From positions 1-64,000 of the IMG/VR virus record IMGVR_UViG_3300008117_004020: a DNA stretch of 64,000 nt. One strand, given 5' to 3'. Made by a program: the position numbers and the translations under genes. Source of the stretch: a virus. Of the stretch, positions 5,537-23,306 are shown in pieces (position 1 is the stretch's first letter; each line of letters opens with the position of its first letter). The notes under the pieces are model-generated. The model saw nothing but the letters and a program-made list of their open reading frames with translations, was not told the origin of the DNA and did not search any database.

Positions 5537-5683
5537 TTACTTTTTCTTGCCTTTAGTCATACCACCGCTTTTGTAAGCTGGCATTGCACTCTTAGGCGCA
5601 GAAGATTTAGTAACTGATTCTTTTTTGGTAGGAGATTTAACTACGATCCCCTTACCCATAGCTGCTTTGTTTTTACCTGCCAT
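5537..5683 (-). CDS. Small Lys-rich protein directly after the MCP (not in ORF track)
   Basis: MAGKNKAAMGKGIVVKSPTKKESVTKSSAPKSAMPAYKSGGMTKGKKK, 48 aa, double stop. Confidence 0.7.
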   Translation of the reverse strand: MAGKNKAAMGKGIVVKSPTKKESVTKSSAPKSAMPAYKSGGMTKGKKK

Positions 5684-5717
5684 TTTTTTAAATTTTATGT
5701 TGGTTTATTAATAAATG

Positions 5718-5748
5718 TGAGGGAGATCTTACGGGATCTCCCCCTCAT
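5718..5748 (-). terminator. Hairpin after the MCP
   Basis: GGGAGATC..GATCTCCC inverted repeat about 10 bp after the MCP stop. Confidence 0.6.
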
Positions 5749-5756
5749 AATATATA

Positions 5757-7382: not shown

Positions 7383-7414
7383 AGGAAATTTAGATTTTTA
7401 TTATTAAATTTTGT

Positions 7415-8647: not shown

Positions 8648-8749
8648 AATGTTGGTTTTATTCTACACTATTAATATACGAAATATAAATTCATAAACAT
8701 TAAAAATGTACGCAAAAAATAGAAATTTTGCTAGTATAACGCTATAAAA

Positions 8750-11482
8750 TTACTTCTTCTTTTTACTATTGTCTGGTTTGTCGTATTTATTCTTGTTAGT
8801 TCTAGCAATCTGCAATTGTTTGTCAGCAATACGTTCTCTAGCAGATATCTCTCTTTCTTTTAGATTGTTAGTCTCACGCTGAGAAATTTGCTTGTTAACT
8901 TCCCTCTCTCTATCTAAATTCATTTGCTCTCTGTAGTTCTCTTGCTTTTGAATATTCTCCATTGCATCTTGATAGTCAGACATTTGATTTTGGTTAATAT
9001 CTGCCATTGAACCATATCCTGCAGATTTAATCTGAGAAACAAGAATATTATTTTGTCTGTCTTTCTCAGCCTCTTCAGCTTTAAACTGCATCTCCATTTG
9101 CTTTTGTTTCTCTTGAGAAGCCAGAAGCTCTTGTTGCATTTGCTGTTGATGCTGCTGTTCTTGTTGTTTTTGAGCAAGTACTTTTTCTTCAGATGATTTA
9201 AGTACACCTGTAAGTTCAGCAATAGATTCAGATTTAATAACATTGCCAAGGTCATAAATAGATGCGCCTGTAGTATTATTCTGAATAGCAAGTTGTTTAA
9301 GTTGCTCTAACACTGTTCTATGATTGCTCTTAGTACTAGCAAATATGTTAAACTCTCTAGCCAATAGATTAACTCCATTAATTTCAAAGTTGACCTTTTC
9401 CTCAGCTGATGTCATATACTGAAGTCTCACTGAAGGTTTCTTAGAATGATAATACTGAGCTAAGTCAGTTCTCATCTGATGCACCCTAGGCATTAGATAG
9501 TCAGTGTGCTGGACAAAATAATGTTCTGTCTGCGCGTGCGAGTTGACAACAGCTTGTTCAATACCCATAGCTGTTTGTTGCCCCACCACTTCTCCTAATC
9601 TCTGTGGAGAAATTCCTATCGTTTCAAAAGCTTGTTGTTTAAAATATGTAGCCAACTGTATCCTAGAAAGCAAACGCTGGGTTTGTTCAAGATTCAACAC
9701 TTGGTAGTGTTGGAAGTTTAGAGCATTCTCTGTATTGGTGATGCTTGTATCTAAAGCCAGCATCTGGAAGTTCTTCATTGCTACATATGCCTTAGAAAGA
9801 TTATGTTTTCCCCAATCTTCTCCCATAGAATGTCTAGGTAGAGCATTCTGGTCTAACATAATCACTGTACCCAACTCATCTACCAGGATGTCAGCTATCT
9901 GATTGTTTACAATGTTATAACCAATCTGGAATGGTTTCATTAAATCCACCAAGCTCACTGACCTAGTATTACGATCTGAGAATACAGATCCTTCCACTGG
10001 CAGTTTGCATCCATAAATAGTGCTGTCTCCTTTAAACTGGAATGGAAGCTTCTTTACATCAAGATAGATGGGAGCAAGTCCTCCTGGATTATTCATACCC
10101 CAGAATGATGGTCTGTTAGGACCAATCTTAACACCACCCCAAGTTTCATTAATCCATATCCAATCTATATGTTCACCAAAGACCAAGTTATCCTTGCTCT
10201 TTGTTTTAATTGTAGTTGTATTATAAAGAGGCTTTTCAGTGATTTTATATGTCTCGTCCACTATGTCTTGGACAATCTCTCCCTCATCAGTGATTCTAGT
10301 GAGATGCCCCACCTTACGCTGAGACTTCCAATAACATGTGGTAGCCCTTAGCATATGACTAGGACCATAGTCAAGAAAGTCTTCTCCCTCAGCCAATATC
10401 CATTGTACAATATCACCATTGTATGGCATATTCTCATATGCTGACAAAAACTGACGATATGCTAAAGATGGACCCTGAACATTGTATTCATGTGATCTTG
10501 TAGGATCATAGTAAGATCCATCATTTTGTAAACCTTGTATAGGAAGACCCACTGATCTTACAGGGTAGATTGCCTCTAGCGCCTCTAGTTGATCCTGAGT
10601 CATCTTATATCCATACTGGTCTATGATGTCAGAAACTGTAAGAATCTCAATCTTACCCACCCAGTTACCTTGAGAAATATATCTTGCACTTGGAGATTTA
10701 TGATAGAACGTCAACAGAGGATTCCACAATTCAATATCATAGTCATCCTCATTCATTTTGAAATGCCAGAACTCCCTGTCAGTGATTAACATATCTCTGA
10801 AAGCCATGTTCTCCAGCTCATACATGTGGAATCTTTCTTCATCCACTTTATGCTGGTGATTAGCCCATATCTCTACAATATTCCTATAATCTTTTTTAAA
10901 GAAACTCTCAATTTCAGGTAGTGACTTTAGACTAGAAGGATCCATCATCTTTTGACCATCCTCAGATTCTGGGTCTATTCCCTGTGCTATAAGATTCTCC
11001 ATCATCCTCTTCTCAGCTTTAGCAAGCAGAGTTTCCTCAATCATTGATCGTTTTTCCTCAAGCATCTCATTATATGAGATATCATCAACTGCTCTAAAAA
11101 TAATTTTAGAACTACGTTTTGCAAATTCTCCTGTGAGGACATTGATTACATTTGGAATGATTGGGTAAAATTTAAGTTCTAGCGCAGACTGATCTTCTTT
11201 AGTGAGGGTTTCAATAAGATCTGCATACTCATTGTCATCTTCTACTATATAGTCATTTCTATCAATAATACCTTTAGCAAGCTTGTAGTTTTTTAGAAGT
11301 TTTCTAGCATTTCTTCTAATCTGCTTAATACCCTGCCATTCCAGCCAGTCCATATTCCAAGCTCCCCACTCTCCATCTTTTTCTTTCCTAGGTAAAAATT
11401 GGATGGGCTGAGTGAGCGTACCCATCTTATTATATGACGTCTTTTTACCAGCTTTAAGGTCTAGGGCGTTATATACTTGCAT
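8750..11482 (-). CDS. Portal protein
   Basis: About 910 aa, between terminase and scaffold; FYPIIPNVINVLTGE, SLVDLMKPFQI.YNI, Q-rich tail. Start re-called at MQVYNALDL. Confidence 0.85.
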   Translation of the reverse strand: MQVYNALDLKAGKKTSYNKMGTLTQPIQFLPRKEKDGEWGAWNMDWLEWQGIKQIRRNARKLLKNYKLAKGIIDRNDYIVEDDNEYADLIETLTKEDQSALELKFYPIIPNVINVLTGEFAKRSSKIIFRAVDDISYNEMLEEKRSMIEETLLAKAEKRMMENLIAQGIDPESEDGQKMMDPSSLKSLPEIESFFKKDYRNIVEIWANHQHKVDEERFHMYELENMAFRDMLITDREFWHFKMNEDDYDIELWNPLLTFYHKSPSARYISQGNWVGKIEILTVSDIIDQYGYKMTQDQLEALEAIYPVRSVGLPIQGLQNDGSYYDPTRSHEYNVQGPSLAYRQFLSAYENMPYNGDIVQWILAEGEDFLDYGPSHMLRATTCYWKSQRKVGHLTRITDEGEIVQDIVDETYKITEKPLYNTTTIKTKSKDNLVFGEHIDWIWINETWGGVKIGPNRPSFWGMNNPGGLAPIYLDVKKLPFQFKGDSTIYGCKLPVEGSVFSDRNTRSVSLVDLMKPFQIGYNIVNNQIADILVDELGTVIMLDQNALPRHSMGEDWGKHNLSKAYVAMKNFQMLALDTSITNTENALNFQHYQVLNLEQTQRLLSRIQLATYFKQQAFETIGISPQRLGEVVGQQTAMGIEQAVVNSHAQTEHYFVQHTDYLMPRVHQMRTDLAQYYHSKKPSVRLQYMTSAEEKVNFEINGVNLLAREFNIFASTKSNHRTVLEQLKQLAIQNNTTGASIYDLGNVIKSESIAELTGVLKSSEEKVLAQKQQEQQHQQQMQQELLASQEKQKQMEMQFKAEEAEKDRQNNILVSQIKSAGYGSMADINQNQMSDYQDAMENIQKQENYREQMNLDREREVNKQISQRETNNLKEREISARERIADKQLQIARTNKNKYDKPDNSKKKK

Positions 11483-11487
11483 GATTA

Positions 11488-11673
11488 TTAAATAGTTAGG
11501 GTGTAATTTTGATCCCAGCTCATTGTTGTAACCCAACTAGGATCTGTAGGAATATCATCAAAGTCATCAATTTCAACAGCCTCTTGTTCATCACTTAAAA
11601 GAATAAGTGCTTCTTCTAGATTGATGTGTCCCAGCTTAATTAACTTTTCAATTAGTTCTTTTTTAATTGACAT
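11488..11673 (-). CDS. Hypothetical protein
   Basis: 61 aa; start overlaps the terminase stop. Confidence 0.6.
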   Translation of the reverse strand: MSIKKELIEKLIKLGHINLEEALILLSDEQEAVEIDDFDDIPTDPSWVTTMSWDQNYTLTI

Positions 11674-13880
11674 TATTTTATGTTTTTAAAGGCTGAACGA
11701 TGACTATTGTATTTGCTTCTTACAGTAGAAGAGTGACCCATATGTCTAAATGGGTTCAATTTTAATTTATGACTTTTTTCTGAATTTTCCAAATTATCCT
11801 TCTTAACTTCTACACGTTTAGCCAGTCCTCTGTTGGACTGCTGCACTTTAGCAAAAGCTATAAGAGCACAAAATGATACTATCCTATCCACGTTTAGTCC
11901 ATCCCTATATGCTTGCATTTCTTTAAGAAGCATTGGGTCAGGTATCCTCTCCACTCCATAAATAGTCTTCACTATTGTACCATCAGGTAGAGTTTCATGG
12001 TCTAATTCCTCTTTAAGAAATTCAATACCATATGATAGAATTGTGCCCTTGAATATTGTACCCACATTCTTCCATCCATACTCTTGGAATACATTCCTAT
12101 TAGCTCCTATGTCTTTGAGAAACAATATCATGTCTTTAGGAACCAGATACCTTTGTTTCTTCTTAGATATCATGTATTGGATGAACAGAGCTACGTTGTT
12201 CTCCACTATAGTCCAAGCATTATACCATTCTATAAGAAGCTCTAGTCTTTCATGTGTCTTGTTAATATCATCAAACCTACCGCACCAAGACGCCACTATC
12301 CTATCTCTCTCAATTGTGTTTTTAACCTTACCATCTCCTTCATCTTCAATCACTTCTACTGGATTCTTATATATGTAAATAGAACATAGAGAATCAGATG
12401 TAGTTGTCTTACCCTCACCTACAGGATCCACAGAGGCATAATACATCCCAAACGTAGGATCTTTATGTGGTCTTTCATATACACATATCACACCCTCTTT
12501 ATCTTCTGTCTTTTTAGAAATAGGGAAGTCCATGATGGGAAGCTTCCTGGATGAGGATGCTACAATCTTACCCTCTGCATTTCTAGACAGGTCCAAATAC
12601 TCAACTGAATAATCCTTATCTGAGATTCTTTGTAATTGTTTTGTAACTAAGTGGGAAGGGAACACACTCACTTTTCTAGAAGCAAATGCTTCTTCTATAT
12701 TGCGGGGGTGCTGAGATATTTCTAGTTGATATGCTTCTGGTGCTAAGTTCTTCTTTTGTTTAGTGAACTCCTCATCCAAAGCTTCTAATGCTTCTCCCAC
12801 TAGTGAATTACCATACCCATCTATGTATGGAGGCATAGACCACTGTTCTGGAATAAACAATCCTGTTTTTCCTAGGGTGCCTTCTGTATCTATAAGATTG
12901 GACTCCACCCCAAAAAATCCATTCTCTTCAGGATGTAAGATGTATTCTTTCAATGGTTCACACTGATCCAAGTCACCCACTGATCCTGCTGCAATAAACT
13001 GACCTGTGATGATGTGACCAGACTTAAGAGCTGGTTTCATGAATCCATAGGTGTCATTCATCTTAGGAGCAATACCAGCCTCCTCATGAAAGAAGTAGGT
13101 GACAGGACCACCCACACCATGTGTAGGATCTTTTTCAAAGGAGTAGAGATTTATAGTGGACTTTAGTCCCTTATATGTATCCCTACCATTTATCCTCACT
13201 TTAATCTGCTGTTGCCATGCTCCCACCTTGTCTGGTTCAGCTGGTCTATACCAAGCAGTGTGTTCATTAAGGAAGTTTTTATACTCATTCAAAAACTTCC
13301 ATGAACCTTTCTCATTTATATAGTCTTTTAGACTCGCTCCTATTTTTAACACTGCACCCTCTTCAAACCAATATTGGTTAATGAGTTTAGCCATGTGAAA
13401 ATAGGAGGAGGCTATCTGACGTTTTTTAAGGATAATGGCATGTTTATAATTAAGCTCAGCTAAATGTTCATATAGAGCCATGTGATACTGAGCATCTCTC
13501 ACTTTTGCAAAGTCAAATCTCTTTTCCTCCTTATCGTATATAGGCAGGAAATTAAGCCACATATAATAATCACGACTAATATACCAAGTGTTACCATTAG
13601 AGTGTACAATAATCCCCTTACGACATTTATTTTTCTGATCATCCCAGTAGGTAATGAAATCTTTTGTTTTAACTGGTGCAGAACAGTAATACTTTTGTCT
13701 TTGAAACTTTCTAGCTTCTGCATTAAATATGAGACTGCTTTCATCAAAATTGTATTGACCAGGTTCTTTAAATATAGAAGACACGAAGGCTTTAAACTCT
13801 TCTCTGGAAGAAAAGGTTGTTATACTCCATTCCCCATCTTTGTATGTAGGGATATCAGTATAATTATTTATTTCTTGCAT
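11673..13880 (-). CDS. terL: Terminase large subunit
   Basis: Walker A-like LKKRQIASS, Walker B FFHEEAG, nuclease motif YYASVDPV, C-terminal DRIVS. Confidence 0.92.
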   Translation of the reverse strand: MQEINNYTDIPTYKDGEWSITTFSSREEFKAFVSSIFKEPGQYNFDESSLIFNAEARKFQRQKYYCSAPVKTKDFITYWDDQKNKCRKGIIVHSNGNTWYISRDYYMWLNFLPIYDKEEKRFDFAKVRDAQYHMALYEHLAELNYKHAIILKKRQIASSYFHMAKLINQYWFEEGAVLKIGASLKDYINEKGSWKFLNEYKNFLNEHTAWYRPAEPDKVGAWQQQIKVRINGRDTYKGLKSTINLYSFEKDPTHGVGGPVTYFFHEEAGIAPKMNDTYGFMKPALKSGHIITGQFIAAGSVGDLDQCEPLKEYILHPEENGFFGVESNLIDTEGTLGKTGLFIPEQWSMPPYIDGYGNSLVGEALEALDEEFTKQKKNLAPEAYQLEISQHPRNIEEAFASRKVSVFPSHLVTKQLQRISDKDYSVEYLDLSRNAEGKIVASSSRKLPIMDFPISKKTEDKEGVICVYERPHKDPTFGMYYASVDPVGEGKTTTSDSLCSIYIYKNPVEVIEDEGDGKVKNTIERDRIVASWCGRFDDINKTHERLELLIEWYNAWTIVENNVALFIQYMISKKKQRYLVPKDMILFLKDIGANRNVFQEYGWKNVGTIFKGTILSYGIEFLKEELDHETLPDGTIVKTIYGVERIPDPMLLKEMQAYRDGLNVDRIVSFCALIAFAKVQQSNRGLAKRVEVKKDNLENSEKSHKLKLNPFRHMGHSSTVRSKYNSHRSAFKNIK

Positions 13881-14130
13881 TCACCAACTTTTCAAGTTTT
13901 TCAACATCTCCCTTTGTCTTATGCAAAAGCTCTATAAGTGTGTTAATAGATTTACTTCTGATTATTTGAGGATGGTGATAGTCTTCCCAGTATTCATATT
14001 TTAAATCCTTTGGGATGGCTGCCCATTGTTTTGTATATGGATTGAAATGAAACATCCAATCATACATAAATAAATCTGATGGGTCATACCCAGGTTCTAC
14101 ATCTTGATAAGTTTCTTGTTTCTTTGCCAT
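13864..14130 (-). CDS. Hypothetical protein
   Basis: 88 aa, operonic overlap. Confidence 0.65.
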   Translation of the reverse strand: MAKKQETYQDVEPGYDPSDLFMYDWMFHFNPYTKQWAAIPKDLKYEYWEDYHHPQIIRSKSINTLIELLHKTKGDVEKLEKLVNARNK

Positions 14131-14137
14131 ATTAATT

Positions 14138-14650
14138 TTATTGATCGTATGCTAATGACTGTCCTCCTCTGACAGATGATTGTTGTTCTTCCATTAAATC
14201 TTTATACACACCTTTATAACTTTGTCGTATTGCATCAAAATCTTTTGCTATTCTACCTATCTGTGCAATGTTACCATCGCGCCCATCTGTAATCTGTGTT
14301 GTGGACATATAGAATGCAATATTGTCCAGCGCTTTTTTAATACCGTAATATGCCCTAGAGGTTTCTGTTTGATACATCTTGTTGCACATATTAAGCGCTT
14401 TAACCACATCATCATCCTCTGGTAAGAATGTAGCCTCTATCTCTTTTAGTATCACTTCCTCTTTCTCCTCATCTGGAAAATGAAAGAATGGGTTTAAATC
14501 TGGATTGGGGCATGTCATATAAAACAGATAGGTGTACACTTGGACATGGTCATCAGGATGGTTGTCTAATATATCCTTTAAAAATTTTAACGTATAACAA
14601 TGCTCAGATGGAACCACCTTACCATTTTGTATATCAAATAATCTTATCAT
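14138..14650 (-). CDS. Conserved protein, candidate terminase small subunit
   Basis: 170 aa upstream of terL with C-terminal VRGG; function inferred from position. Confidence 0.5.
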   Translation of the reverse strand: MIRLFDIQNGKVVPSEHCYTLKFLKDILDNHPDDHVQVYTYLFYMTCPNPDLNPFFHFPDEEKEEVILKEIEATFLPEDDDVVKALNMCNKMYQTETSRAYYGIKKALDNIAFYMSTTQITDGRDGNIAQIGRIAKDFDAIRQSYKGVYKDLMEEQQSSVRGGQSLAYDQ

Positions 14651-15021
14651 ATTGTTCTGTATAACATTGCCAGCGCTTCAAATCTACCAGCAGTTTTTTG
14701 TAATGTGACAATAGTGTCCCTACTCTTACGCATTGCATAGTCTAGTTCTAAGCTAGAAGCTATGAACAATTGTGTTGATAGTTCATCCAGTTGTTTCTCA
14801 TCCATACTGTTCTTAAGAATAGACAGCAACTCTTTAGACAAAGACTCCATTGCTGAACATTTACCATGAGGGTAGATGTCATTCTGTAAATCTATCGCTG
14901 TATCTTCTAGTAATTTAGCTATGTCAAAGAATAGCTGAGAAAGCTTGGTGCGCTTTTTTTCATCAGATGACAGCTTCTTGCCTATAACTGTAATGATTGT
15001 ATCCACTATATCAAGCCACAT
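14647..15021 (-). CDS. Hypothetical protein
   Basis: 124 aa, helical, overlaps both neighbours. Confidence 0.6.
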   Translation of the reverse strand: MWLDIVDTIITVIGKKLSSDEKKRTKLSQLFFDIAKLLEDTAIDLQNDIYPHGKCSAMESLSKELLSILKNSMDEKQLDELSTQLFIASSLELDYAMRKSRDTIVTLQKTAGRFEALAMLYRTI

Positions 15022-15845
15022 TATTTCTTAGATTTTATTTTGTTATTAGCAGCATAATTAATCAAAGATATGATTTCTCTTTTTAAATAGTCTACACTGT
15101 AAGGCACTACATCCTTCACTATGGGATCGCCATTGTTATCCAATGCTGTTATAGGATTGTCATACTTATCACGTCCCACCTCCTCAAATATAATATGATG
15201 CAGTGTCATACTTCCTGGGGATAGTGTAGGATTGTGCTTTAATATCATATACATGTACAATGACAATTGAAGAGAATAGTGATTGAAGTTGCAATCATCC
15301 AGATGTGCAACAGGATGGGCCATCTTTTGTTTAAGCCCTTCCCAGTTTGTGAAACTTTCTGTCTTTATCTCTTTGTTTGTTTTATAGTCTGTTATATTCA
15401 CCCTACCATTTACCACTTCCACCAAATCAGACTGACCACACAGTCCTGCTGATTTAAGATAGACCAGATGTTCTGGATAGACACCATCTGTTAGTTTCTG
15501 AGAAGGAGCATGTTTGATTCCATCCTTCTCAATAGGTTTGAATACAGGAACCACCACTCCCTCACGCTCTATTGTCTCCAGTCCACACAAGTCAGCTTCC
15601 CTTTGATTATGATACCATGTCCCTAATGTCGTAGCTCTGTCAGCCTCAGCCTTCCAGAGATTTTTAATTTCCTCAGGATCAATACCACACCACTTAGACT
15701 TCTTGTTTTTAGAAGCCTTCTTAGATATGGTGTCAGCGTCAAATGGTTGCTTAAAATTTCCAATAAAACTTGTTACGCTTAGCCAATTTATATCATCGTC
15801 ACTTACATATTTATGGTCATGTGCTGTAAACTTTAATATACTCAT
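15021..15845 (-). CDS. PD-(D/E)XK (Cas4-like/exonuclease) nuclease
   Basis: GTWYH, PEHLVY, GQSDLV, ITDYKTNK, YSLQLSLY; start re-called at MSILKF. Confidence 0.85.
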   Translation of the reverse strand: MSILKFTAHDHKYVSDDDINWLSVTSFIGNFKQPFDADTISKKASKNKKSKWCGIDPEEIKNLWKAEADRATTLGTWYHNQREADLCGLETIEREGVVVPVFKPIEKDGIKHAPSQKLTDGVYPEHLVYLKSAGLCGQSDLVEVVNGRVNITDYKTNKEIKTESFTNWEGLKQKMAHPVAHLDDCNFNHYSLQLSLYMYMILKHNPTLSPGSMTLHHIIFEEVGRDKYDNPITALDNNGDPIVKDVVPYSVDYLKREIISLINYAANNKIKSKK

Positions 15846-15849
15846 AATA

Positions 15850-16059
15850 TTATTTTTTAAATAAAAACTTAAAAGCATCTATTATGTTTTTTGGCATATA
15901 CCAATCATATAAATAAATACTTTTTGGTGCTACTATCACTCCTACATTTTTAACCCATAGCATCCACTTTTTATTCCATTTAAAAAGAAGAATACCTTTT
16001 ACTGGAAACTCCTCTGGATTTTTAAAGTCTGCATTTCTAAAATCATAAAAAGTTTTCAT
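15850..16059 (-). CDS. Hypothetical protein
   Basis: 69 aa, tiles the operon. Confidence 0.55.
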   Translation of the reverse strand: MKTFYDFRNADFKNPEEFPVKGILLFKWNKKWMLWVKNVGVIVAPKSIYLYDWYMPKNIIDAFKFLFKK

Positions 16060-16382
16060 ATTCCTAATTTTTGGTTTAATTTATCTTCTTCCTCCTCTGT
16101 AAGAAGAGCCTCCCATTTGTTCAAGGGACATTCTGAAGACATGCTTCTGGTCTTTAACTTTAAAGAGCAACCACATCCTCCTTTAGTTTCATCGCAACAG
16201 GGTTGTGTACCTGGCAACATGCATCCTGTACCATGCACATCATAAAGGTGACAATCCATGCAAATCTGCATTCTCTGATGTGCAACTTCCTCCACATCCT
16301 CTTTCTTAAAGATGGAATTGGTGATGCCCTCTAGGATTTGTCCCTTACTTTTCCAAATCTGTAGTATGTTCTTGAATGTCAT
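16056..16382 (-). CDS. Cys-rich Zn-binding protein
   Basis: R..IC..C, CC, CGC.L..K.R, CP..KW. Confidence 0.7.
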   Translation of the reverse strand: MTFKNILQIWKSKGQILEGITNSIFKKEDVEEVAHQRMQICMDCHLYDVHGTGCMLPGTQPCCDETKGGCGCSLKLKTRSMSSECPLNKWEALLTEEEEDKLNQKLGI

Positions 16383-16743
16383 TGTTAAATCTTTTATTTA
16401 TAACTTCTGATCTTCTTTGTCTTTCCTCTAATAAAAACTCTTTCATTTTTTCTATTAGCTTGAGTTTTTCCTGGTATTCCTGTTTAATAGAATACTCCCT
16501 GATAGTATCATTTGACATTATGGAGATGAGCTTGTTACACTTCTCTTCATAGTTAATCAGGGCTTTTTCCTTAATGTAGAAATGTCCCAGATTCTCTAGA
16601 TGAACATTGACAGCCTCTAGATTGGACAGCTTCTGTCTTATTGTTTTATAATAAAAAGACATCACTGTCTGCACTTCATCTACAGACTTCTCCATTTCCA
16701 TAGCATAGCTAGGAATAAGATTTCTCACTTTAGTTGGATGCAA
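16345..16743 (-). CDS. IHF/HU-like DNA-binding protein (crAss capsid-block IHF)
   Basis: Two helices then VHLENLGHFYIK, resembling the HU/IHF G.F strand; position matches crAss IHF-like genes. Confidence 0.6.
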   Translation of the reverse strand: MHPTKVRNLIPSYAMEMEKSVDEVQTVMSFYYKTIRQKLSNLEAVNVHLENLGHFYIKEKALINYEEKCNKLISIMSNDTIREYSIKQEYQEKLKLIEKMKEFLLEERQRRSEVINKRFNNDIQEHTTDLEK

Positions 16744-17095
16744 CGCTTAGGAATTTATAGTCAAGCAATATATTACCCTCAGTTTGTATCTTAATCTCAG
16801 GATTGATGTAAATCTTCTTCTTACTCTTTCCCTCCTTAATTACAAGTTTGTTTTTCTCTGCTCTAGCTATAGCATTCCTAGCTGACTGCGAAGATTTAAA
16901 CACACCCTTCTCATGCACCTTGGTGCAGAATGCATTCAAGTCTTGCACTCCATCAATGGCTAACATAATCAGACAAATTATTTCTGAGCTGCTAAGTACA
17001 ATTCCAGACAAAAAACAATGGGTTATTATCTGAAATTGCACCGCAGCTTGCTTGTCTAACTTAGCCTTTTTTTCTACTAGGTTAACAACGGCCAT
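16730..17095 (-). CDS. Winged-HTH protein
   Basis: SSQSARNAIARAEKNKLVIK followed by a wing hairpin. Confidence 0.55.
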   Translation of the reverse strand: MAVVNLVEKKAKLDKQAAVQFQIITHCFLSGIVLSSSEIICLIMLAIDGVQDLNAFCTKVHEKGVFKSSQSARNAIARAEKNKLVIKEGKSKKKIYINPEIKIQTEGNILLDYKFLSVASN

Positions 17096-17097
17096 AA

Positions 17098-17418
17098 CTA
17101 TTGAGCAGTTTCTGTTTTAAGTTTTCTTTTCAGAGTCTTTGGTACAGGTATCTCATCACCTACATTAATACCAGCATCCTTAAGATCAGGATTGTTTGCC
17201 ATATCCTCTTCTGTGATGATATGATTCTCCATCTCCTCTTGAGGCTGTGGGTTGGTGATTTGACCAATCATCACCAATGCTCTAAGCTCATCAGCCCTAC
17301 CCATGGCAATCTTGGTGTTTAACTCTTGCAACTCAGCTCTTAGTTTAGCCAGCTCAATTGACTCATTTAGAAAATCAATAAGCTCTTCTCTGGTTGGTTG
17401 TTTTTGTTCTTCTGACAT
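17098..17418 (-). CDS. Hypothetical coiled-coil protein
   Basis: 106 aa; first gene after an intergenic promoter-like segment. Confidence 0.65.
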   Translation of the reverse strand: MSEEQKQPTREELIDFLNESIELAKLRAELQELNTKIAMGRADELRALVMIGQITNPQPQEEMENHIITEEDMANNPDLKDAGINVGDEIPVPKTLKRKLKTETAQ

Positions 17419-17514
17419 AATAAATTTGGTTTTATACTATAAATATACATAATATGTTTAAACTTTCCAAATTTATTTTTTAAACATAAAATAAAAAAGG
17501 GAGATTATCTCTCC

Positions 17515-18174
17515 CTATTTACCATATTCAAAGTCTAGTATTTTCCCCACCAGGTCTGAGCGGTGGTTATGTTTGAGCTTCACCCATTGTATCTCTTTAA
17601 TCTTCTTTGATAATTCTATAACGTAGGATAGACCGTTCATCTCCCCATTTCTGGTGGTGATGTCAGTCTGTTCATTATCCCCATTAATGATTATCTTACC
17701 TGTCTTACCCAGTCTTGTAAGGATGGCTAGCATCTCAGCCTTTGTCAGGTTCTGTGCTTCTTCCACCACCAAGACATCATCTATTGTCTTACCCCTTATA
17801 TATTGTACTGGCAGTGCCACCACTTGTTGCTGGTTGACCAGCGCCTCAATCTTTTCTTTGGAATAGCACTTAGTGAGGTTTTCCAAGAAGGCTTCTAGGT
17901 AGGGGTTAAACTTATCATTCAATGATCCTGGTAGAAATCCCAGGGAATGTCCCACTTCTACAGCTGCCCTGGTCACTAGGATTTGCTCACATTCCTTTTT
18001 AAATAGAAAGTCCAAAGCTGTCTGTGCTGACACTAGAGACTTACCACAGCCTGCCCTCCCTGTAATCACCACTATTTGGTTCTCCCTTATTATCCTCTTA
18101 GCTTCCTTTTGTTCTTCATTGAGGGTGACACTATACTTAATCTCATTCTTACGTTCTCTATTTGGTTCTTTCAT
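17515..18174 (-). CDS. phoH: PhoH-like ATPase
   Basis: GRAGCGKS, TRAAVE, LGFLPG, YIRGKT, EEAQN, LTRLG, GDNEQTD, HRS.LV. Confidence 0.95.
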   Translation of the reverse strand: MKEPNRERKNEIKYSVTLNEEQKEAKRIIRENQIVVITGRAGCGKSLVSAQTALDFLFKKECEQILVTRAAVEVGHSLGFLPGSLNDKFNPYLEAFLENLTKCYSKEKIEALVNQQQVVALPVQYIRGKTIDDVLVVEEAQNLTKAEMLAILTRLGKTGKIIINGDNEQTDITTRNGEMNGLSYVIELSKKIKEIQWVKLKHNHRSDLVGKILDFEYGK

Positions 18175-18476
18175 ATATTAGCGTTTTATACAAGACAGAC
18201 CTCTAGTTCCCCTGTGTCCTTTTAATTGCACACTTCAACTAGAGCTGTACGTCAGACTTTGCGTCTTTACACCCCCTTGGAAACTCATCTCCCTGTCAAT
18301 TCAGGACACTCTACCTATGTGTATTGTTCCAACCTCTATGTCTATAATGCAACCAGTTTTGTACCTATTGGAGAAAACCCTGGGATCTATTTGACCCCTC
18401 CAACCCAACTTCTGGTCCACTACTCACTATATAGCCCCTCGTGGACGTCCTCTGTGGTATAACAGATGGTACAATA

Positions 18477-18484
18477 CAAATATA
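18477..18484 (-). promoter_or_regulatory. Bacteroidota -7 box (TATATTTG) facing phoH
   Basis: Matches TAnnTTTG on the minus strand, about 300 bp upstream of phoH. Confidence 0.55.
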
Positions 18485-18512
18485 CTACATACCCTGGACA
18501 TACCCAAATTTA

Positions 18513-18528
18513 TGTTCCACGTGAAACA
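18513..18528. promoter_or_regulatory. parS-consensus site
   Basis: TGTTCCACGTGAAACA matches TGTTNCACGTGAAACA at every position; intergenic. Confidence 0.75.
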
Positions 18529-18531
18529 TAT

Positions 18532-18728
18532 CCCCCCTAAGTCACCCCTCAAGTACACCCCCCTAGTTACCCCCTAGGTCCCTATGATAATTTGGTGTAT
18601 GTTAGATGTTGTGAGTACCTTATAATAACAAGACCCCCCAGTCAGAGACAGCGAGGGCTACCCCCCTAGGTCTTGGGGACAAGAGACTGAATCTATACAA
18701 TCTAAGGGGGAGGGGGTGACACAAGGGG
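18532..18728. repeat. C-/G-tract cluster with CCCCCTAG-type repeats
   Basis: Several C4-C7 runs followed by G-runs in an otherwise AT-rich genome. Confidence 0.7.
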
Positions 18729-18739
18729 AAGACAAGGAC

Positions 18740-18798
18740 TTCTACTCATCCATCAGTCTGCATGCTTCGCATGCATCCTGCTGTCTGGACACCTATAT
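18740..18798 (+). promoter_or_regulatory. Motif-hairpin-motif repeat, copy 1
   Basis: TTCTACTC ... TGCATGC-TTC-GCATGCA ... GGACACCTATAT. Confidence 0.55.
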
Positions 18799-19130
18799 GG
18801 TATTAGTGAAGGAGAGTAGATAGATTATGGTGGACACACGTGTCATCTTCTATCTATTGTATTGTATATTAGTCCTTTTGTATATTGAGGATATGCGCAA
18901 CCTTGGGTTCATTGGGAGTTAAAGTGTAGTTTCGCCCATGAATCACATAACAGAATAATCTACACACATCCTAGGTCTCTGTATTATATGCAGGGACCTA
19001 GTTTCATTTAATCACAAATGGTTGAGTCTTAATGCTTTGACTCGTAATACCACAACAGCCTTAGCAGGCACACAGGGAACATGTAATAGTGTTCCCTTCA
19101 TTTTGTATTCTTTAACCTAAATATATTCAA

Positions 19131-19421
19131 ATGAAGAAGATTGTCTACTATCTTATGGGTGTTGTCAGCACTACATCATCCATAATGTTCATCTATTACA
19201 TCTTTAATCTGTCAGAAGAACCTAGACCCAAAGACAATGATATTCAGAGAAGATATGATAAGAATATCAAGAGTCAGGGGTATAGTCTGCTTATGCTTAT
19301 ATCAGCAGCAGTCATTATTATTCTATTCATGTCTAGTTGTAGCGCCTCTAAAACACGCTGGGGCTGCACAGGTAGTAAATACCAGACAGGATATAAGAGT
19401 AAACTGGGGTATGGCTATTAA
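19131..19421 (+). CDS. Hypothetical membrane protein
   Basis: 96 aa with two hydrophobic segments. Confidence 0.55.
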   Translation: MKKIVYYLMGVVSTTSSIMFIYYIFNLSEEPRPKDNDIQRRYDKNIKSQGYSLLMLISAAVIIILFMSSCSASKTRWGCTGSKYQTGYKSKLGYGY

Positions 19422-19438
19422 TCCTTTATCATCTTAGT

Positions 19439-19576
19439 ATGAAACGTCTATTCATGTCCATCATGGAGTTCATGAACTTCAAGGACATAGCCAATTTCAA
19501 CTATGACTTCACCATATCTAATGGTGAGGTGATAGTAGATGCGCAGGCAGAAATGCTTGCTGCAATAGGCTATTAA
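19439..19576 (+). CDS. Small hypothetical protein (not in ORF track)
   Basis: MKRLFMSIMEFMNFKDIANFNYDFTISNGEVIVDAQAEMLAAIGY, followed by a terminator. Confidence 0.55.
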   Translation: MKRLFMSIMEFMNFKDIANFNYDFTISNGEVIVDAQAEMLAAIGY

Positions 19577-19590
19577 AATCAGCACAGGTT

Positions 19591-19628
19591 AAGAACCCTA
19601 ATGGAGCAATCCAAAGGGGTTCTTTTTT
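19591..19628 (+). terminator. Intrinsic terminator
   Basis: AAGAACCC...GGGTTCTT followed by a T-run. Confidence 0.7.
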
Positions 19629-19637
19629 AAGACAGTA

Positions 19638-19666
19638 TTCTACTCTGCTACGCAGGACACCTTTAT
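19638..19666 (+). promoter_or_regulatory. Motif-hairpin-motif repeat, copy 2
   Basis: TTCTACT-CTGC-TAC-GCAG-GACACCTTTAT, between a terminator and the next start codon. Confidence 0.65.
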
Positions 19667-19706
19667 CATATTGGTATATTATTCTTTTTAACCTAAATCT
19701 TTTATT

Positions 19707-20090
19707 ATGGCACAGCACATCAAAGGCAAGTTTGGTTTTACCACAGTTGTTATTGACCAAACCTACTATCTCTTCACTTGTAAGATTATTACTAGCGCAG
19801 ACACAGCACTACCTATTATTCAGGGTGTAAGCGCTAGAAATATCACAGACAAGAAGGGTAATGTCAGATCTCTCATCACTTATTGCACCATGGACTACAC
19901 AGAGCATCGTAGAATGCAGATTGCTATTGCAAAGCATTTAGAGGACCATGCTATGTATAAGTTGAAGCGTAAGTATGCGTGGGCGCATGAAGATGATAAA
20001 TTACCAAGGATTGTTGGTAAAATAGAACTGCCTGAACTATCTCTTGAAGATAGAGACATTCCTTCGTGGGGAGATGATTTGCCTTATTAA
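19707..20090 (+). CDS. Hypothetical early protein
   Basis: 127 aa, acidic C-terminus DDLPY. Confidence 0.7.
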   Translation: MAQHIKGKFGFTTVVIDQTYYLFTCKIITSADTALPIIQGVSARNITDKKGNVRSLITYCTMDYTEHRRMQIAIAKHLEDHAMYKLKRKYAWAHEDDKLPRIVGKIELPELSLEDRDIPSWGDDLPY

Positions 20091-20096
20091 TCTCAC

Positions 20097-20125
20097 AGAC
20101 CTCTGTAGCAATACAGGGGTCTTTT
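20097..20125 (+). terminator. Intrinsic terminator
   Basis: AGACCTCTGTA-GCAA-TACAGGGGTCT followed by TTT. Confidence 0.75.
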
Positions 20126-20139
20126 ATTTGTTAGAAAAC

Positions 20140-20173
20140 TTCCACTCTGTACTATCGTACAGGACACCTTTAT
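20140..20173 (+). promoter_or_regulatory. Motif-hairpin-motif repeat, copy 3
   Basis: TTCCACT-CTGTAC-TATC-GTACAG-GACACCTTTAT. Confidence 0.65.
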
Positions 20174-20237
20174 GTTTTTGCTATATTGTCCTTTTATAGT
20201 TAGTTATTTTATTATTTAATCTTTAAATGTTTATTTT

Positions 20238-20768
20238 ATGCAATTGACCTTAACAGCATTAAACAATGTATGTCAATTTTTTGGTAGCAGCGCCTATGTA
20301 ATGTTCAGTGCTACCACTCCTAATGGAGACACTATTGAAATCGGAATCACAGAGAATTCCCTCAATAGAGTAGGTGCAGACATCTTATCTCCTGATAGTC
20401 TGATTGGTTGCAAGATTACCACCAAGGAGTATGTTGACAATCGCACAGGTGAGATTGTCAATGTAGATGATAGGATAGAGAGTAATGTTCTTGCAGGTAA
20501 GGGTGTCACCTTGCTTAATTCGCTGAACCATGTTCTCACCTTCTCTGAACTATTTAAAGCACAGCGCTTTGAAGCAAATGCTGCTATCAACGGTAGAGTA
20601 AAAGCAGAGCGCGAAAGAGAAAAGCGCATGATTCAAATGCAAAAGCAAATGGAAAGGTTAGCACTCAAAACACAAACCCTTGCAGTTGCAGACGCACCTA
20701 TTGATGAAGCACCTTTGGTAGAAGAAACTCCTACACAAGAGTTGTCTATTGAAGAAGAAGCATTCTAA
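20238..20768 (+). CDS. Hypothetical early protein
   Basis: 176 aa; beta-rich N-terminus, coiled coil, acidic tail ending in Phe. Confidence 0.7.
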   Translation: MQLTLTALNNVCQFFGSSAYVMFSATTPNGDTIEIGITENSLNRVGADILSPDSLIGCKITTKEYVDNRTGEIVNVDDRIESNVLAGKGVTLLNSLNHVLTFSELFKAQRFEANAAINGRVKAEREREKRMIQMQKQMERLALKTQTLAVADAPIDEAPLVEETPTQELSIEEEAF

Positions 20769-20955
20769 TTTGAGATGATATACAGGGGTCCCTCTAATAT
20801 ATAGGGGGACTCTTGTATAATCATACAACCTGCAACCCCTGCCCTCCACACAATGCTGCGCTACATACGAACACATAAGGACAACATATGGACAATATAG
20901 CAGTCCTCGTGTGCAGTGTAAAGCGTATGACACAAAAGGGTGAATAAAATCTCTA

Positions 20956-20980
20956 TAACTAATTGATAATCAAGAGGTTG
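20956..20980. promoter_or_regulatory. Inverted pair of IHF-consensus sites
   Basis: TATCAA-TTAG-TTA (minus) and AATCAA-GAGG-TTG (plus) both fit WATCAANNNNTTR. Confidence 0.5.
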
Positions 20981-21237
20981 TTAGTGACAGGAAAACAAGG
21001 GGTGTTTTTATAATCATCTGACAATCAGTGTGATTGTAGAAAAAATTCGAGCGTGAGTATATGGCTATATGAGACAATGTGTGTATGTGTGTGGTGTATT
21101 ATGTCTCTATATATACATATGTCATGCTATGAGAATATTGGTTTTGGAGTATCAGTTTACATCGCCCTATATATGTCTATATATTAGGGGCCTTTTATTA
21201 ACACAGACCAAAATGGCTGTATACAGCTGTGATTCTT

Positions 21238-21477
21238 ATGGACTATACTAAACCACACAATTTAAAACTAGCCAGGAAAGCATTTTTAAAGGATTTACAT
21301 AAAGATAATGACTTCATTGAGTTTAGGAAGAACAATAGTTTTGTAATTGGTTACTTTGGTTATGATATAGAGCGTCTTCCTAACACATCAGCTCAATATC
21401 TTGTTACGCGATATGTTAAGACCACCAAAAATGTACGTAAAATTAAGGTGGTATTAGTAGATGAAGAACAAATCTGA
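21238..21477 (+). CDS. Hypothetical protein
   Basis: ORF from MDYTKPH. Confidence 0.55.
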   Translation: MDYTKPHNLKLARKAFLKDLHKDNDFIEFRKNNSFVIGYFGYDIERLPNTSAQYLVTRYVKTTKNVRKIKVVLVDEEQI

Positions 21478-21501
21478 TTTAAAACTTAAAAACCCACACA
21501 C

Positions 21502-21663
21502 GTGAACAAAAAGATTCAGAGCCTATTAGATGGAGGCTTTATAACCATCGAAGACATACTAGAATATGCTCAGCAGTATATGGATGCTGTAGACAAATAT
21601 GATGATGAGCAACTGGATAAGTATACACACAATTTAGAGGACCAAAAAACAGATGTACAATGA
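21502..21663 (+). CDS. Small acidic protein (not in ORF track)
   Basis: GTG start, 53 aa, ATGA overlap with the next gene. Confidence 0.5.
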   Translation: MNKKIQSLLDGGFITIEDILEYAQQYMDAVDKYDDEQLDKYTHNLEDQKTDVQ

Positions 21664-22001
21664 AAAAGTTGTTAATTATTGCCGTTGTATTAGCCTCATG
21701 TACTAAAGAAGACATATATCAGGCTAGACCTATTAAGAGAGACACCACAGCCCCAAAAGCGTCCATACAGTATAATAGTAGTTTCACCACTATTAACGCT
21801 ACAGACAATATGGGACTGAAAACTATGTACTACTATGAGAATAATGTCCTATCTAGGACATTCACCACCTCCAACACCCCTGGATCCACTGCCACCAATT
21901 GGACATATACATTCCCTTCTACCACTATATCACCATGCACCCTCAAAGTCATGGCTGTGGACCTGGCAGGTAATTATGTCGAAGTGTTTAAATCCATATA
22001 G
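21660..22001 (+). CDS. Lipoprotein with Ig-like (Big) domain
   Basis: LASC lipobox; DTTAP, ATDN.G, A.D.AGN motifs. Confidence 0.75.
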   Translation: MKKLLIIAVVLASCTKEDIYQARPIKRDTTAPKASIQYNSSFTTINATDNMGLKTMYYYENNVLSRTFTTSNTPGSTATNWTYTFPSTTISPCTLKVMAVDLAGNYVEVFKSI

Positions 22002-22004
22002 TGT

Positions 22005-22229
22005 ATGGAAGACCTGAACATACAAAATGCTGTTAAAATACTTATTGTGAAAGCCATGGTTAAATACAATGGCAATCATAGAAAAGCAGCCAAAGCATTA
22101 GAAATCAGCGAGCGCACCCTATATAGAATGATTCATGATTATGACATAAAATCAGCCATATGGGACATCAAAACATCAAAGTATTTAACCAAAAAACAGA
22201 GAAATGAAGACAATAATGTTATGGTATAG
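22005..22229 (+). CDS. Fis-family HTH protein
   Basis: AM.KYNGNHRKAAKALEISERTLYR. Confidence 0.85.
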   Translation: MEDLNIQNAVKILIVKAMVKYNGNHRKAAKALEISERTLYRMIHDYDIKSAIWDIKTSKYLTKKQRNEDNNVMV

Positions 22230-22470
22230 CATTGCAGTAATATTTACAGGTGGTATTATAGGGTATATGATAGGTGTTGTTTCAGCAAAGCGTTATGTCA
22301 AACAGGAGAATTGTAACAGATTACATGTGCTGCCATATGAATATCGTGTCATATGTGATGGTACAGACAGTGTTGCAGTGTATACACTCATATCTCCTGA
22401 AAATGACACATTAGGGTCCTTTAGTAACCCAATGGAATTAGAAACTCTCATCCTAAATGACAATTTATGA
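22204..22470 (+). CDS. Hypothetical membrane protein
   Basis: N-terminal transmembrane helix. Confidence 0.55.
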   Translation: MKTIMLWYSIAVIFTGGIIGYMIGVVSAKRYVKQENCNRLHVLPYEYRVICDGTDSVAVYTLISPENDTLGSFSNPMELETLILNDNL

Positions 22471-22670
22471 GCGAACACACACCAAGATTCCCTGATGATA
22501 CAGACTGGGAATACAAAAAGCATGAACTAGAGCCTGTGCCAATTGAAATTGATATAATCACAGGCAAAAAAACATGGGAAGTGAATGGTTGTAGACTAAC
22601 TGCTGATACATATGTAGAAGCCCTTAGACTACTACCACTTATTGAAGATGTTAACAAGGACTTAGATTAG
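22467..22670 (+). CDS. Hypothetical protein
   Basis: 67 aa, ATGA overlap. Confidence 0.6.
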   Translation: MSEHTPRFPDDTDWEYKKHELEPVPIEIDIITGKKTWEVNGCRLTADTYVEALRLLPLIEDVNKDLD

Positions 22671-22748
22671 TTGGACTTCACGCAACTAACAGTTATGGCA
22701 GGTAAACTACAAACCTGCCCCAGCACACCTGGTAAAAAACCAAATGTC

Positions 22749-23306
22749 ATGAAAACAGATTATACAACATCCCACAACAAAAAGATTGTACAAAAGATCA
22801 TCTATAAAAGATTTAAGAAAAAGGGGATAAAAAATCTAATTGGACTGGCTGGACCTAACATAAGCAACTATCTATCATTTGTAAAATCAATGGGCATAAA
22901 GATGGCAAACATCTATGAGAAAAACCCAACGCAATTATTATTGCAAATACTTGATTATAAGTTTCTTATGAGGACTAGCGTCAAATTTGAAGACATATTC
23001 CAAGCAAACCCACACCTGAAAGACACTGTTTATGATTTGGATTTTGATTGCAGCATTCTGCATGTCAAAAGACACATCAAAAGATTTGTAAATAATGCCA
23101 TCATCACATTAGCAATCAGACCAGTAGGTTTAGAACTTACACTTAAAATGTTTAGCAAACTTGTGTCAAAACATAAGGCTACAATATTATATAATGTGAA
23201 AACAACAGACAATTACAAATTGCATGAAATCCAATTCCCAGAGAAAACCTATCTATGTTATCAATACAAAGATAAATCAAACATGTTATCATTAACCATT
23301 AAATAA
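22749..23306 (+). CDS. Putative Rossmann-fold methyltransferase-like protein
   Basis: LIGLAGP, NIYEKN, FEDI, YDLDFD resemble class I MTase motifs; start re-called. Confidence 0.4.
   Translation: MKTDYTTSHNKKIVQKIIYKRFKKKGIKNLIGLAGPNISNYLSFVKSMGIKMANIYEKNPTQLLLQILDYKFLMRTSVKFEDIFQANPHLKDTVYDLDFDCSILHVKRHIKRFVNNAIITLAIRPVGLELTLKMFSKLVSKHKATILYNVKTTDNYKLHEIQFPEKTYLCYQYKDKSNMLSLTIK

Follow-up and report, generated by a model that had tools for sequence, protein, structure and literature searches.

Three hairpins with fixed flanks were found ahead of the first rightward genes in the genome of an uncultured lake crAss-like phage (a record of 118,147 bp), and because related phages keep these hairpins through compensating mutations, the elements are a testable candidate for the start signal of the injected RNA polymerase (RNAP). 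Our results suggest that they may be phage-specific immediate-early promoters for this polymerase, with the hairpin aiding the opening of the DNA, a reading to which we give a probability of about 0.45. Positions refer to the window, that is, the whole stretch of 64,000 nt that was analysed, and beyond it to the full record.

Three hairpin elements ahead of the first rightward genes

The three motif-hairpin-motif elements of the original prediction were all seen in the sequence as it had described them (Table 1). On the template strand, the tip of the element 1 hairpin reads GCGAAGC and element 2 reads GCGTAGC, and the loop of element 3 is GATA with a C:G closing pair. The DNA fold was clear for element 1 (-10.2 kcal/mol on the plus strand and -11.6 kcal/mol on the minus strand, z about -3.4 to -3.5) and by itself weak for elements 2 (z -1.5) and 3 (z -2.1), 4-bp stems such as that of element 2 being marginal with standard DNA parameters. 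The folding parameters gave no separation of the plus strand from the template strand, and the set has no triloop bonus for either. The covariance model R2 (see below) scored element 2 at 55.1 bits (E 5.5e-07) and element 3 at 43 bits (E 1.3e-04), and it missed element 1 because of its long insert.

Both elements 2 and 3 were unchanged in two DNA sequencing runs that cover them, and the studied stretch was present in lake and freshwater metagenomes. A 21-mer adjoining the elements had 0 matches among 185,579 prokaryote genomes, 17000-23000 had no megablast match in the phage collection, and an Rfam search of 18000-21000, accepting E values up to 1, gave 0 matches. We found no description of such an element in the literature searched.

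Table 1. Features of the early region and the virion RNA polymerase gene
Feature	Position	Strand	Basis or remark
Element 1	18740..18798	+	sequence read; DNA fold
Element 1, 5' box TTCTACTC	18740-18747	+	
Element 1, stem core of 7 bp, TGCATGC/GCATGCA	18759-18765 and 18769-18775	+	loop TTC; stem long, interrupted
Element 1, 3' box GGACACCTATAT	18787-18798	+	
31-aa hydrophobic ORF	18827..18922	+	downstream of element 1; no PHROG family; putative coding
Weaker hairpin-less box CCTTTTGTATATTGAG	18874..18889	+	downstream of element 1; by eye; doubtful member
Hairpin-less box CCTTTATCATCTTAG	19423..19437	+	just ahead of the 45-aa ORF
45-aa ORF	start 19439	+	
Terminator-like hairpin (GAACCC...GGGTTC) and T-run	about 19592-19628	+	by eye; ends 9 nt before element 2
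Element 2	19638..19674	+	sequence read; model R2; DNA fold
Element 2, 5' box TTCTACTC	19638-19645	+	
Element 2, hairpin CTGC-TAC-GCAG	19645-19655	+	
Element 2, 3' box GGACACCTTTAT	19655-19666	+	continues as CCTTTATCATATTGG, 19660-19674
127-aa ORFan gene after element 2	19707..20090	+	no PHROG family; ATG 41 nt past the box
Terminator-like hairpin	20097-20122	+	terminator scan; T-rich tail to 20132; ends a few bases before element 3
Element 3	20140..20173	+	sequence read; model R2; DNA fold
Element 3, 5' box TTCCACTC	20140-20147	+	
Element 3, hairpin CTGTAC-TATC-GTACAG	20147-20162	+	
Element 3, 3' box GGACACCTTTAT	20162-20173	+	
Hairpin-less box CCTTTTATAGTTAG	20190..20203	+	17 nt past element 3; the ATG at 20238 follows after about 35 nt
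176-aa gene after element 3	20238..20768	+	ORF list; homology
2391-aa ORF, crAss-type virion RNAP homologue	64762-71937	-	DFDYD at residue 1393

Specificity of the elements

The 12-base 3' box GGACACCTWTAT had three exact matches in the window; in the full record it matched three times in forward and 0 times in reverse orientation, and a control pattern read backwards gave 0 matches in both. Neither half was enriched alone, since the 5' half TTCYACTC was matched 7 times against 4.7 expected and the 3' box, when as many as 2 mismatches were allowed, 9 times against 10.3 expected. With a combined pattern (TTCYA, 0-3 nt, a perfect stem of 4-7 bp, a loop of 3-4 nt, 2-5 nt and CCTWTAW), elements 2 and 3 were matched on the plus strand and nothing was matched on the minus strand, against a mean of 0.065 matches in 200 first-order Markov genomes, 13 of which had any match.

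When model R2 was run over 1.16 Mb from 99 sources, all 17 matches at E up to 0.22 were such elements (15 distinct ones, two rows in locus L190 being duplicates of L205), and its two weakest matches were not: one lay within a gene (E 0.3) and the other was a hairpin-less box (E 0.92). A loose gapped pattern searched in viral contigs was uninformative, yielding at least 119 single, chance-like matches.

Conservation and covariation in related phages

Because MAFFT failed to bring the variable stems into register, a covariance model was built; it was seeded from three gap-free copies and then iterated to give R2. This search in relatives, which had been put forward with the original prediction as a check, found 23 elements across 10 related phage records, each heading the early block, so that the motif is not absent there. 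They share a design of TTCCA, a stem of 4-7 bp, a loop of 3-4 nt and rACw, followed by CCTTTAT-N5-TTrG. Every copy was oriented in the same way as the genes behind it, and in the complete genomes G000, G001 and G003 hairpin-bearing matches were localised in the early head only.

The stems of the relatives differed by double substitutions, with the flanks kept. In an alignment of 22 copies, which the model itself had fitted to the structure, Watson-Crick pairs filled 84 of 84 stem cells, a level reached by none of 500 shuffles, which paired at 66.6%; slid controls of the alignment were 15-37% paired. Compensatory stem cells numbered 25, against 6.6 in the shuffles (0/500 reached 25). All four stem pairs varied on both sides and no stem cell was altered on one side only, and therefore no G-U pair occurred among the 84 cells. 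Selection on structure had been claimed earlier from the three copies; judged from the aligned relatives, such selection on the stem is real.

The exact 3' box was absent from 80 loci fetched via terminase, save for one unrelated match in L170, an absence that says little because many of these loci stop before the strand switch; DNA similarity to them ended at the PhoH gene. De novo counts of 9-mer repeats in 17 relatives showed nothing clear. Among four genomes compared, relatives bearing the element had identities of 78-79% for TerL and 47-49% for the RNAP, and those without it 31-32% and 24-26%; presence of the element thus tracks overall relatedness, and its co-variation with the polymerase is confounded and provides no polymerase-specific link.

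Loop composition and the template strand

T..C on the plus strand, and hence G..A on the template, was found for 12 of 16 loops (composition null p = 0.061; binomial P about 4e-12, a value that overstates independence because several copies are homologous). With the copies found later, G(N)NA loops on the template strand amounted to 17 of 23 (element 1 included, counted by eye), 15 of these 17 having a C:G closing pair, and G..A on the plus strand was found in 0 of 23. The remaining six loops were not of the short G..A type (TAAA three times, CAAG, TAT and one loop of 9 nt). As the TATC loop of element 3 is TAGC in a close relative, the G..A ends on the template were kept in this change.

DNA of the sequences GCGNAGC and GCGNNAGC is called an 'extraordinarily stable' mini-hairpin in the available part of one source (PMC13037366), and the available account of N4 promoters states that they require 5' G and 3' A in the template-strand loop, with a C:G closing pair (PMC4496689). 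A fit of the loops to a template-strand DNA mini-hairpin, as in N4 promoters, is supported by these base preferences.

Genomic context

The strand switch is a gap of 956 nt (18175-19130), and the three elements therefore lie within the first 2 kb of the plus-strand block that follows it, at its very start as had been predicted, with element 1 ahead of every plus-strand gene. Copies 2 and 3 had also been placed directly behind terminators, and a terminator-like hairpin was found in front of each; the first of these was not listed by the terminator scan because its loop exceeds 8 nt. Using a strict script, a terminator-like site was located upstream of 8 of 16 elements in the set, and the next ORF started 93-112 nt past the box in 10 of 16.

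None of nine early proteins matched a PHROG family, and tblastn against 80 related loci gave any match for 5 of 16 early proteins, most of those to a single locus. The 176-aa gene has a homologue (29% identity) behind the second element of the relative G001. A single run of an RNA library contributed two low-depth contigs, one over 19821-20005, inside the 127-aa gene, and one over 20213-20388, at the start of the 176-aa gene, which are uninformative on transcription starts. Next to the elements, the non-coding region has runs of C and, at 18513-18528, a palindrome resembling parS.

A small hairpin set between two fixed boxes, in a chain of cassettes and between terminators, is a nut-like layout, and the element might work as RNA, either as a leader or as boxA/boxB on read-through transcripts, where it would load an antiterminator, mark a processing site or stabilise the 5'-end of the mRNA. 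We consider this improbable, given the lack of G-U pairs in the stem cells and the loops UUC, UAUC and UAC, which fall outside the stable RNA loop types known to us (GNRA and UNCG) and whose bias suits the opposite DNA strand. Moreover, the elements begin 9-20 nt past T-runs and so leave no room for a promoter upstream, element 1 precedes all the plus-strand genes, and Rfam recognised nothing in this region.

The genes behind the elements are ORFans that differ among relatives, single genes are bracketed by repeated flanks and a population variant lacks 18887-19016, observations that would also suit a main role in recombination, the promoter-terminator modules serving as short homology for the swapping of single-gene cassettes, a role suggested for the PeSL motifs of T4-type phages. 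Homology-driven swapping, however, needs neither a covarying stem nor a strand-biased loop and could be a side effect of a promoter role, no recombination junction was noticed at an element, and as the main function swapping seems very unlikely. The 5' RNA element and the recombination site, named as alternatives in the original prediction, are both less likely than a promoter.

The origins of single-stranded DNA phages are where such mini-hairpins were originally observed; this, together with the C-runs and the palindrome of the adjoining non-coding region, could mean that a DNA-binding protein of the phage or the host binds the elements, or that they serve a nearby replication origin as single-strand initiation signals. 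The elements are instead spread between genes, co-directional with transcription and at a regular distance to start codons, and one repeat per gene would be unusual for origins, which makes this explanation slightly more doubtful still than recombination.

Hairpin-less boxes and other promoter-like classes

The CCTTTAT-N5-TTrG box was also present without a hairpin in the same early regions, with a constant spacing of about 40-45 nt to the start codons, and several boxes continued into a TGnTAT-like sequence; CCTTTTGTATATTGAG fell outside the strict box pattern. In distant relatives, a TTCCAyCyC-AAAA-CCCTTT box occurred without a hairpin. The existence of hairpin-less boxes suggests that the box, rather than the hairpin, may be the core signal. 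As to the N4-like hairpin promoter proposed at the outset, the template-strand loops fit the N4 mini-hairpin and the hairpins are confined to the early head, but the hairpin is not universal.

The elements are unlike the other promoter-like classes of the genome, namely TAnnTTTG sites and four TTTyGTAwATTAT sites before late genes. TAnnTTTG, which we take to be the Bacteroidota -7 element (host sigma-A consensus -33 TTTG / -7 TAnnTTTG), was found at 14 sites up to 80 nt upstream of gene starts, 0 of them in 18740-20240, and the octamer does not occur in the sequence of elements 1-3. Using TTGACA, 16-18 nt and TATAAT as the sigma-70 test consensus, 20 matches were obtained in the region against 11.4 expected; one 9/12 match overlapped element 2 (AGGACA, 17 nt, TATTAT; 19654-19682), and elements 1 and 3 had no overlapping match.

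Many phages transcribe their first genes with host RNAP, and this enzyme, alone or with a phage factor, might read the elements as immediate-early promoters, the box then being an unusual strong promoter and the hairpin an insulator or the leftover of an upstream terminator, with no role in recognition. The constant spacing of the hairpin-less boxes, their TGnTAT-like extensions and the sigma-70-like match over element 2 are consistent with such a reading. We nevertheless judge it unlikely, because the box lacks the TAnnTTTG found before other genes of the genome, an insulator needs no fixed flanks, no fixed 4-nt gap to the box and no G..A loop bias on the template, and early transcription in phi14:2, a crAss-like phage, is described as resistant to rifampicin in the available part of its study (10.1101/2020.03.07.982082).

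The virion RNA polymerase and a proposed mechanism

A virion RNAP had been presumed for this phage, and a 2391-aa homologue of phi14:2 g066 was indeed located: its residues 1012-1648 aligned with g066, the 'Catalytic RNA polymerase subunit', at 24.5% identity (E 1e-9). No Pfam RNA-polymerase family and no T7-like domain was detected in 7 giant ORFs. The Crassvirales rank among the most abundant of known phages and, to our knowledge, each carries a giant RNA polymerase that is injected; phi14:2 is the only crAss-like phage that we know of whose early 5' ends have been mapped. Model R2 gave nothing better than E 0.37 over the first 12 kb of phi14:2 and thus no element. In the available part of the phi14:2 study, gp66 transcribes the early genes and is active only on single-stranded or denatured templates, and no common motif is reported upstream of the early transcripts (10.1101/2020.03.07.982082). 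In the literature searched, we found no promoter motif published for a crAss-type virion RNAP since then.

We infer that the elements have a promoter role, that the polymerase reads them and that the hairpins form in DNA. The promoter core would be the CCTTTAT-N5-TTrG box, preceded in this clade by rACw, the small hairpin and the half-site TTCCA. The inverted repeat would extrude if the entering DNA is underwound or has become locally single-stranded, and the template strand could form a c-G(N)NA-g mini-hairpin of very high stability, which would open the duplex beside the box and bring TTCCA next to it; the injected crAss-type virion RNAP would then start rightward transcription of the small early cassettes. 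More tentatively, this two-barrel enzyme might itself recognise the template-strand c-G(N)NA-g mini-hairpin between the TTCCA and rACw-CCTTTAT half-boxes, in convergence with the unrelated T7-like enzyme of N4.

If true, the promoter reading would make this the second case, independent of the first, in which an injected polymerase uses a DNA-hairpin promoter, and would provide a sequence signature for the immediate-early genes of uncultured crAss-like genomes. Structure-specific recognition, if true, would give the first defined promoter of this polymerase family and explain the missing specificity of the enzyme on plain denatured DNA. Since the element is short and can be synthesised, the promoter question is open to in vitro tests that need no cultured host; what is predicted concerns the pairing of the stem, the G and A of the template-strand loop and the two half-boxes.

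Comparison with known systems

The boxB of lambda-type nut sites is an RNA hairpin with a purine-rich, GNRA-like loop, located downstream of a promoter; unlike these, our elements have the plus-strand loops UUC, UAUC, UAC and UAAA and stand directly behind terminators. In the PeSL cassettes of T4-type phages the stem-loop is a terminator, whereas here the terminator is a separate upstream hairpin and the small hairpin is part of the promoter-like element. The order of terminator, element, ORFan gene and terminator found here, with genes that differ between relatives, is nonetheless of the PeSL type, in which composite stem-loop and promoter motifs flank variable early single genes, although PeSLs use host-type early promoters according to the available parts of the reports (PMC2839356, PMC4122927).

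Phage phi14:2 has a polymerase of the same family and the same genome plan, small genes and non-coding stretches making up an early block read rightward, and it differs in showing neither a common early upstream motif, as far as the available part of its study goes, nor the R2 element in its first 12 kb (10.1101/2020.03.07.982082). Thermus phage P23-45 also has a two-barrel virion RNAP, with a short motif of its own that serves pre-early genes only and is common to relatives carrying the enzyme; there the enzyme is fused to the tape measure, the promoters are AT-rich with a motif unrelated to ours, the starts were mapped by experiment and no hairpin is described in the available part of the account (10.1101/2022.12.01.518664).

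The available account of coliphage N4 (PMC4496689) attributes to its injected virion RNAP, which is a T7-like single-subunit enzyme (gp50 type) and not a crAss-type two-barrel one, the promoters P1-P3, with flank sequences unrelated to ours; the box of our elements, unlike the N4 flanks, occurs also without a hairpin. In N4, the distance between the centre of the loop and the transcription start is fixed at about 11 nt, and the promoters lie at the genome end that enters first, where extrusion depends on supercoiling and SSB. Both systems have two or three copies heading the early region and a polymerase that needs a single-stranded template, and the hairpins are of similar size (stem of 5-7 bp and loop of 3 nt in N4; 4-7 bp and 3-4 nt here). 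In both, the stem bases vary and yet remain paired between fixed flanking bases, and the template-strand loop has a 5' G and a 3' A (17 of our 23 copies) with C:G closure (15 of those 17).

Genome organisation and virion polymerase homologue

The virus record, 118,147 bp long with an estimated completeness of 98% and having the window as its first 64 kb, encoded a major capsid protein matching Pfam Crass_capsid, and its portal and terminase matched PHROG families carrying the respective annotations portal and large terminase. DNA of this phage was present in lake and freshwater metagenomes. The 2391-aa ORF matched g066, the 'Catalytic RNA polymerase subunit' of the Cellulophaga crAss-like phage phi14:2, over residues 1012-1648 with 24.5% identity (E 1e-9), and no Pfam RNA-polymerase family was found in any of the 7 giant ORFs. 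The phi14:2 polymerase transcribes early genes and uses single-stranded templates only (10.1101/2020.03.07.982082).

Coordinates of features in the phage record and in loci (L) of distant crAss-like phages
Feature	Position	Strand or direction	Remark
Late and structural genes, giant ORFs among them	58104-118034 and 142-18174	leftward	
Early block, mostly small genes	19131-58039	rightward	
Stretch interrupting the rightward block	39268-43906	leftward	
Strand switch	18175-19130		gap of 956 nt
2391-aa ORF	64762-71937	-	DFDYD at residue 1393
Hairpin elements, copies 1, 2 and 3	18740, 19638, 20140	+	
Palindrome TGTTCCACGTGAAACA	18513-18528		16 bases, in strand-switch region
C-runs, then G-runs	18532-18730		non-coding, in strand-switch region
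Segment skipped by one contig	18887-19016		130 bases
Conserved ~65-nt element	19018-19075		adjoins promoter-like boxes; invariant 21 bases at 19044-19064
TTAACCTAAA-like words	19113-19122, 19683-19693		
Plain boxes	19423-19437, 20190-20203		
TTTyGTAwATTAT	83514, 102186, 108791, 118141	-	outside the window
TTCCAyCyC-AAAA-CCCTTT	L222 (genome G005) 1400-1450; L232 561, 1114; L242 ~400		

Hairpin elements and their conservation

Reading of the sequence agreed with the original prediction of three motif-hairpin-motif copies. The 12-base 3' box that follows the hairpin had three matches genome-wide, all on the + strand, and no control matches, and neither the 5' nor the 3' box was enriched by itself. 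The combined structured pattern gave 2 matches versus 0.065 in Markov genomes, with copy 1 escaping it solely owing to its long, interrupted stem; single-sequence folding was convincing for copy 1 only. Terminators had also been proposed before copies 2 and 3, and a terminator-like site preceded each, that of copy 2 seen by eye and that of copy 3 located by a scan.

The exact 3' box was absent from 80 loci of related phages obtained via the terminase (74-86% identity), two of which, inspected by eye, kept the design with changed letters. A 21-base stretch adjoining the elements, identical across these phages, was used as a probe and recovered 11 viral and 21 metagenome stretches, and one gapped pattern added three further records. 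When a covariance model that started from three copies and was refitted on eleven was searched against 1.16 Mb in 99 sources, the best 17 matches were all such elements, and the two weakest were a hairpin-less box (E 0.92) and an intragenic site (E 0.3). The total came to 23 elements in 10 records, with 3 in this genome and 2-3 in every other record. In a whole-genome pattern scan of the complete genomes G001 and G003, hairpin-bearing matches were confined to the early-block head.

The design ran from TTCCA, replaced by TTCTA in copies 1 and 2, through a spacer of 0-2 nt, a 4-7 bp stem with a 3-4 nt loop and a gap that was mostly 4 nt (rACw) to CCTTTAT-N5-TTrG. Covariation of the stem was corroborated by a model-fitted alignment of 22 copies, in which 84/84 stem cells were Watson-Crick versus 66.6% after shuffling (0/500), both sides varied in all 4 pairs, compensatory cells numbered 25 versus 6.6 in shuffles and no one-sided change occurred among the 84 cells, these pairing figures being inflated by the model fitting and by the common ancestry of some copies. 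Slid-partner controls paired at 15-37%. The stems were plainly diverse (CTGC, CTGTAC, CGCT, CAGCC, TCGG, CATC, GAGC, CGGAC, CCGAC, TACC, TCACC, TCCCC and others).

Boxes without a hairpin

CCTTTAW-N5-TRG was also found without a hairpin, likewise confined to the early head (19423, 19660 and one stray site in this genome, and three matches each in G001 and G003). In most relatives such a plain box lay 45-57 nt after the element, and the next ORF started 93-112 nt past the element in 10/16; in copy 2 the position of the plain box is taken by the element's own box, and the ATG follows 41 nt later. This plain box, with the fuller form (T)CCTTTAT-N5-TTrG(TAT), which was also seen in the G001, G002, G003, G006 and L226 loci, often directly after a terminator and ~40-45 nt ahead of start codons, stayed within the initial 1.5-2.5 kb of the early block and may be the core early promoter.

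Hairpin-less TTCCAyCyC-AAAA-CCCTTT occupied the same place in distant phages (terminase 31-32% identical), after terminators at the early-block head and sometimes in tandem. The two half-boxes thus seem to act jointly, and the hairpin has the look of an insert specific to this clade; when extruded, it would bring the half-boxes side by side.

Neighbouring features

The ~65-nt element comprised, in order, a hairpin whose 4-5 bp covary around a fixed 10-nt loop, the 21 bases and an invariant GCC/GGC hairpin. The 21 bases were identical in 21 distinct sequences, including phages with terminases only 31-32% identical. The element had no Rfam match, was absent from 185,579 prokaryote genomes and probably represents either a DNA site or a small early RNA. 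A contig of one DNA run skipped the segment listed in the table and another run diverged at 18887, 19010 and 19103, indicating that the stretch from element 1 to this element is variable in natural populations.

The palindrome, whose letters were confirmed, is a candidate parS-like site. The C- and G-runs are possible markers of an origin, terminus or packaging signal, and relatives (L190, L202, L212 and L217) had similar C-runs at the corresponding position. TTAACCTAAA-like words, possible leader or translation signals, recurred 10-20 nt ahead of early-gene start codons, also in G006 and G002 loci. TTTyGTAwATTAT, a candidate late promoter class, preceded four leftward late genes by 25-107 nt, and a similar sequence lay at ~8700 of the window.

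Possible function of the elements

The elements differed from the other promoter-like classes of this genome, started within 9-20 nt of terminator T-runs and headed ORFan cassettes, and the phages bearing them carry a crAss-type virion polymerase, in phi14:2 an early enzyme acting on single strands only. On these grounds we propose, with a probability of about 0.45, that they are immediate-early promoters for the injected polymerase, in which a template-strand mini-hairpin would open the DNA and let this enzyme start immediate-early transcription. Against this count the absence of such a motif from phi14:2, in our own sequence search of its first 12 kb and likewise in its paper (10.1101/2020.03.07.982082), the boxes lacking a hairpin, and an element-polymerase association inseparable from general relatedness. 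Our literature search revealed no account of a promoter that this polymerase family uses. It is unlikely that the elements are promoters read by the host RNA polymerase. A module shuffling the cassettes is improbable, and a signal for an origin or a site for a protein slightly more so.

The + strand loops were TTC (9), TAC (4), TATC (4), TAGC, TAAA (3), CAAG, TAT and one 9-nt loop, so that G(N)NA loops occurred in 17/23 copies on the template strand and in 0/23 on the + strand (P ~4e-12 for the first 16 copies under a composition null). This bias, together with the absence of G-U pairs, favours a DNA rather than an RNA hairpin, and an RNA element has a rather small chance of being the correct reading. 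GCGNAGC and GCGNNAGC are described as 'extraordinarily stable' mini-hairpin DNA (PMC13037366), and the template strand reads GCGAAGC in copy 1 and GCGTAGC in copy 2. In coliphage N4, according to the accessible part of the report, promoters require a loop with 5'G and 3'A and a C:G closing pair on the template strand (PMC4496689); the promoters proposed here share the template-strand 5'G and 3'A of the loop in those 17/23 copies.
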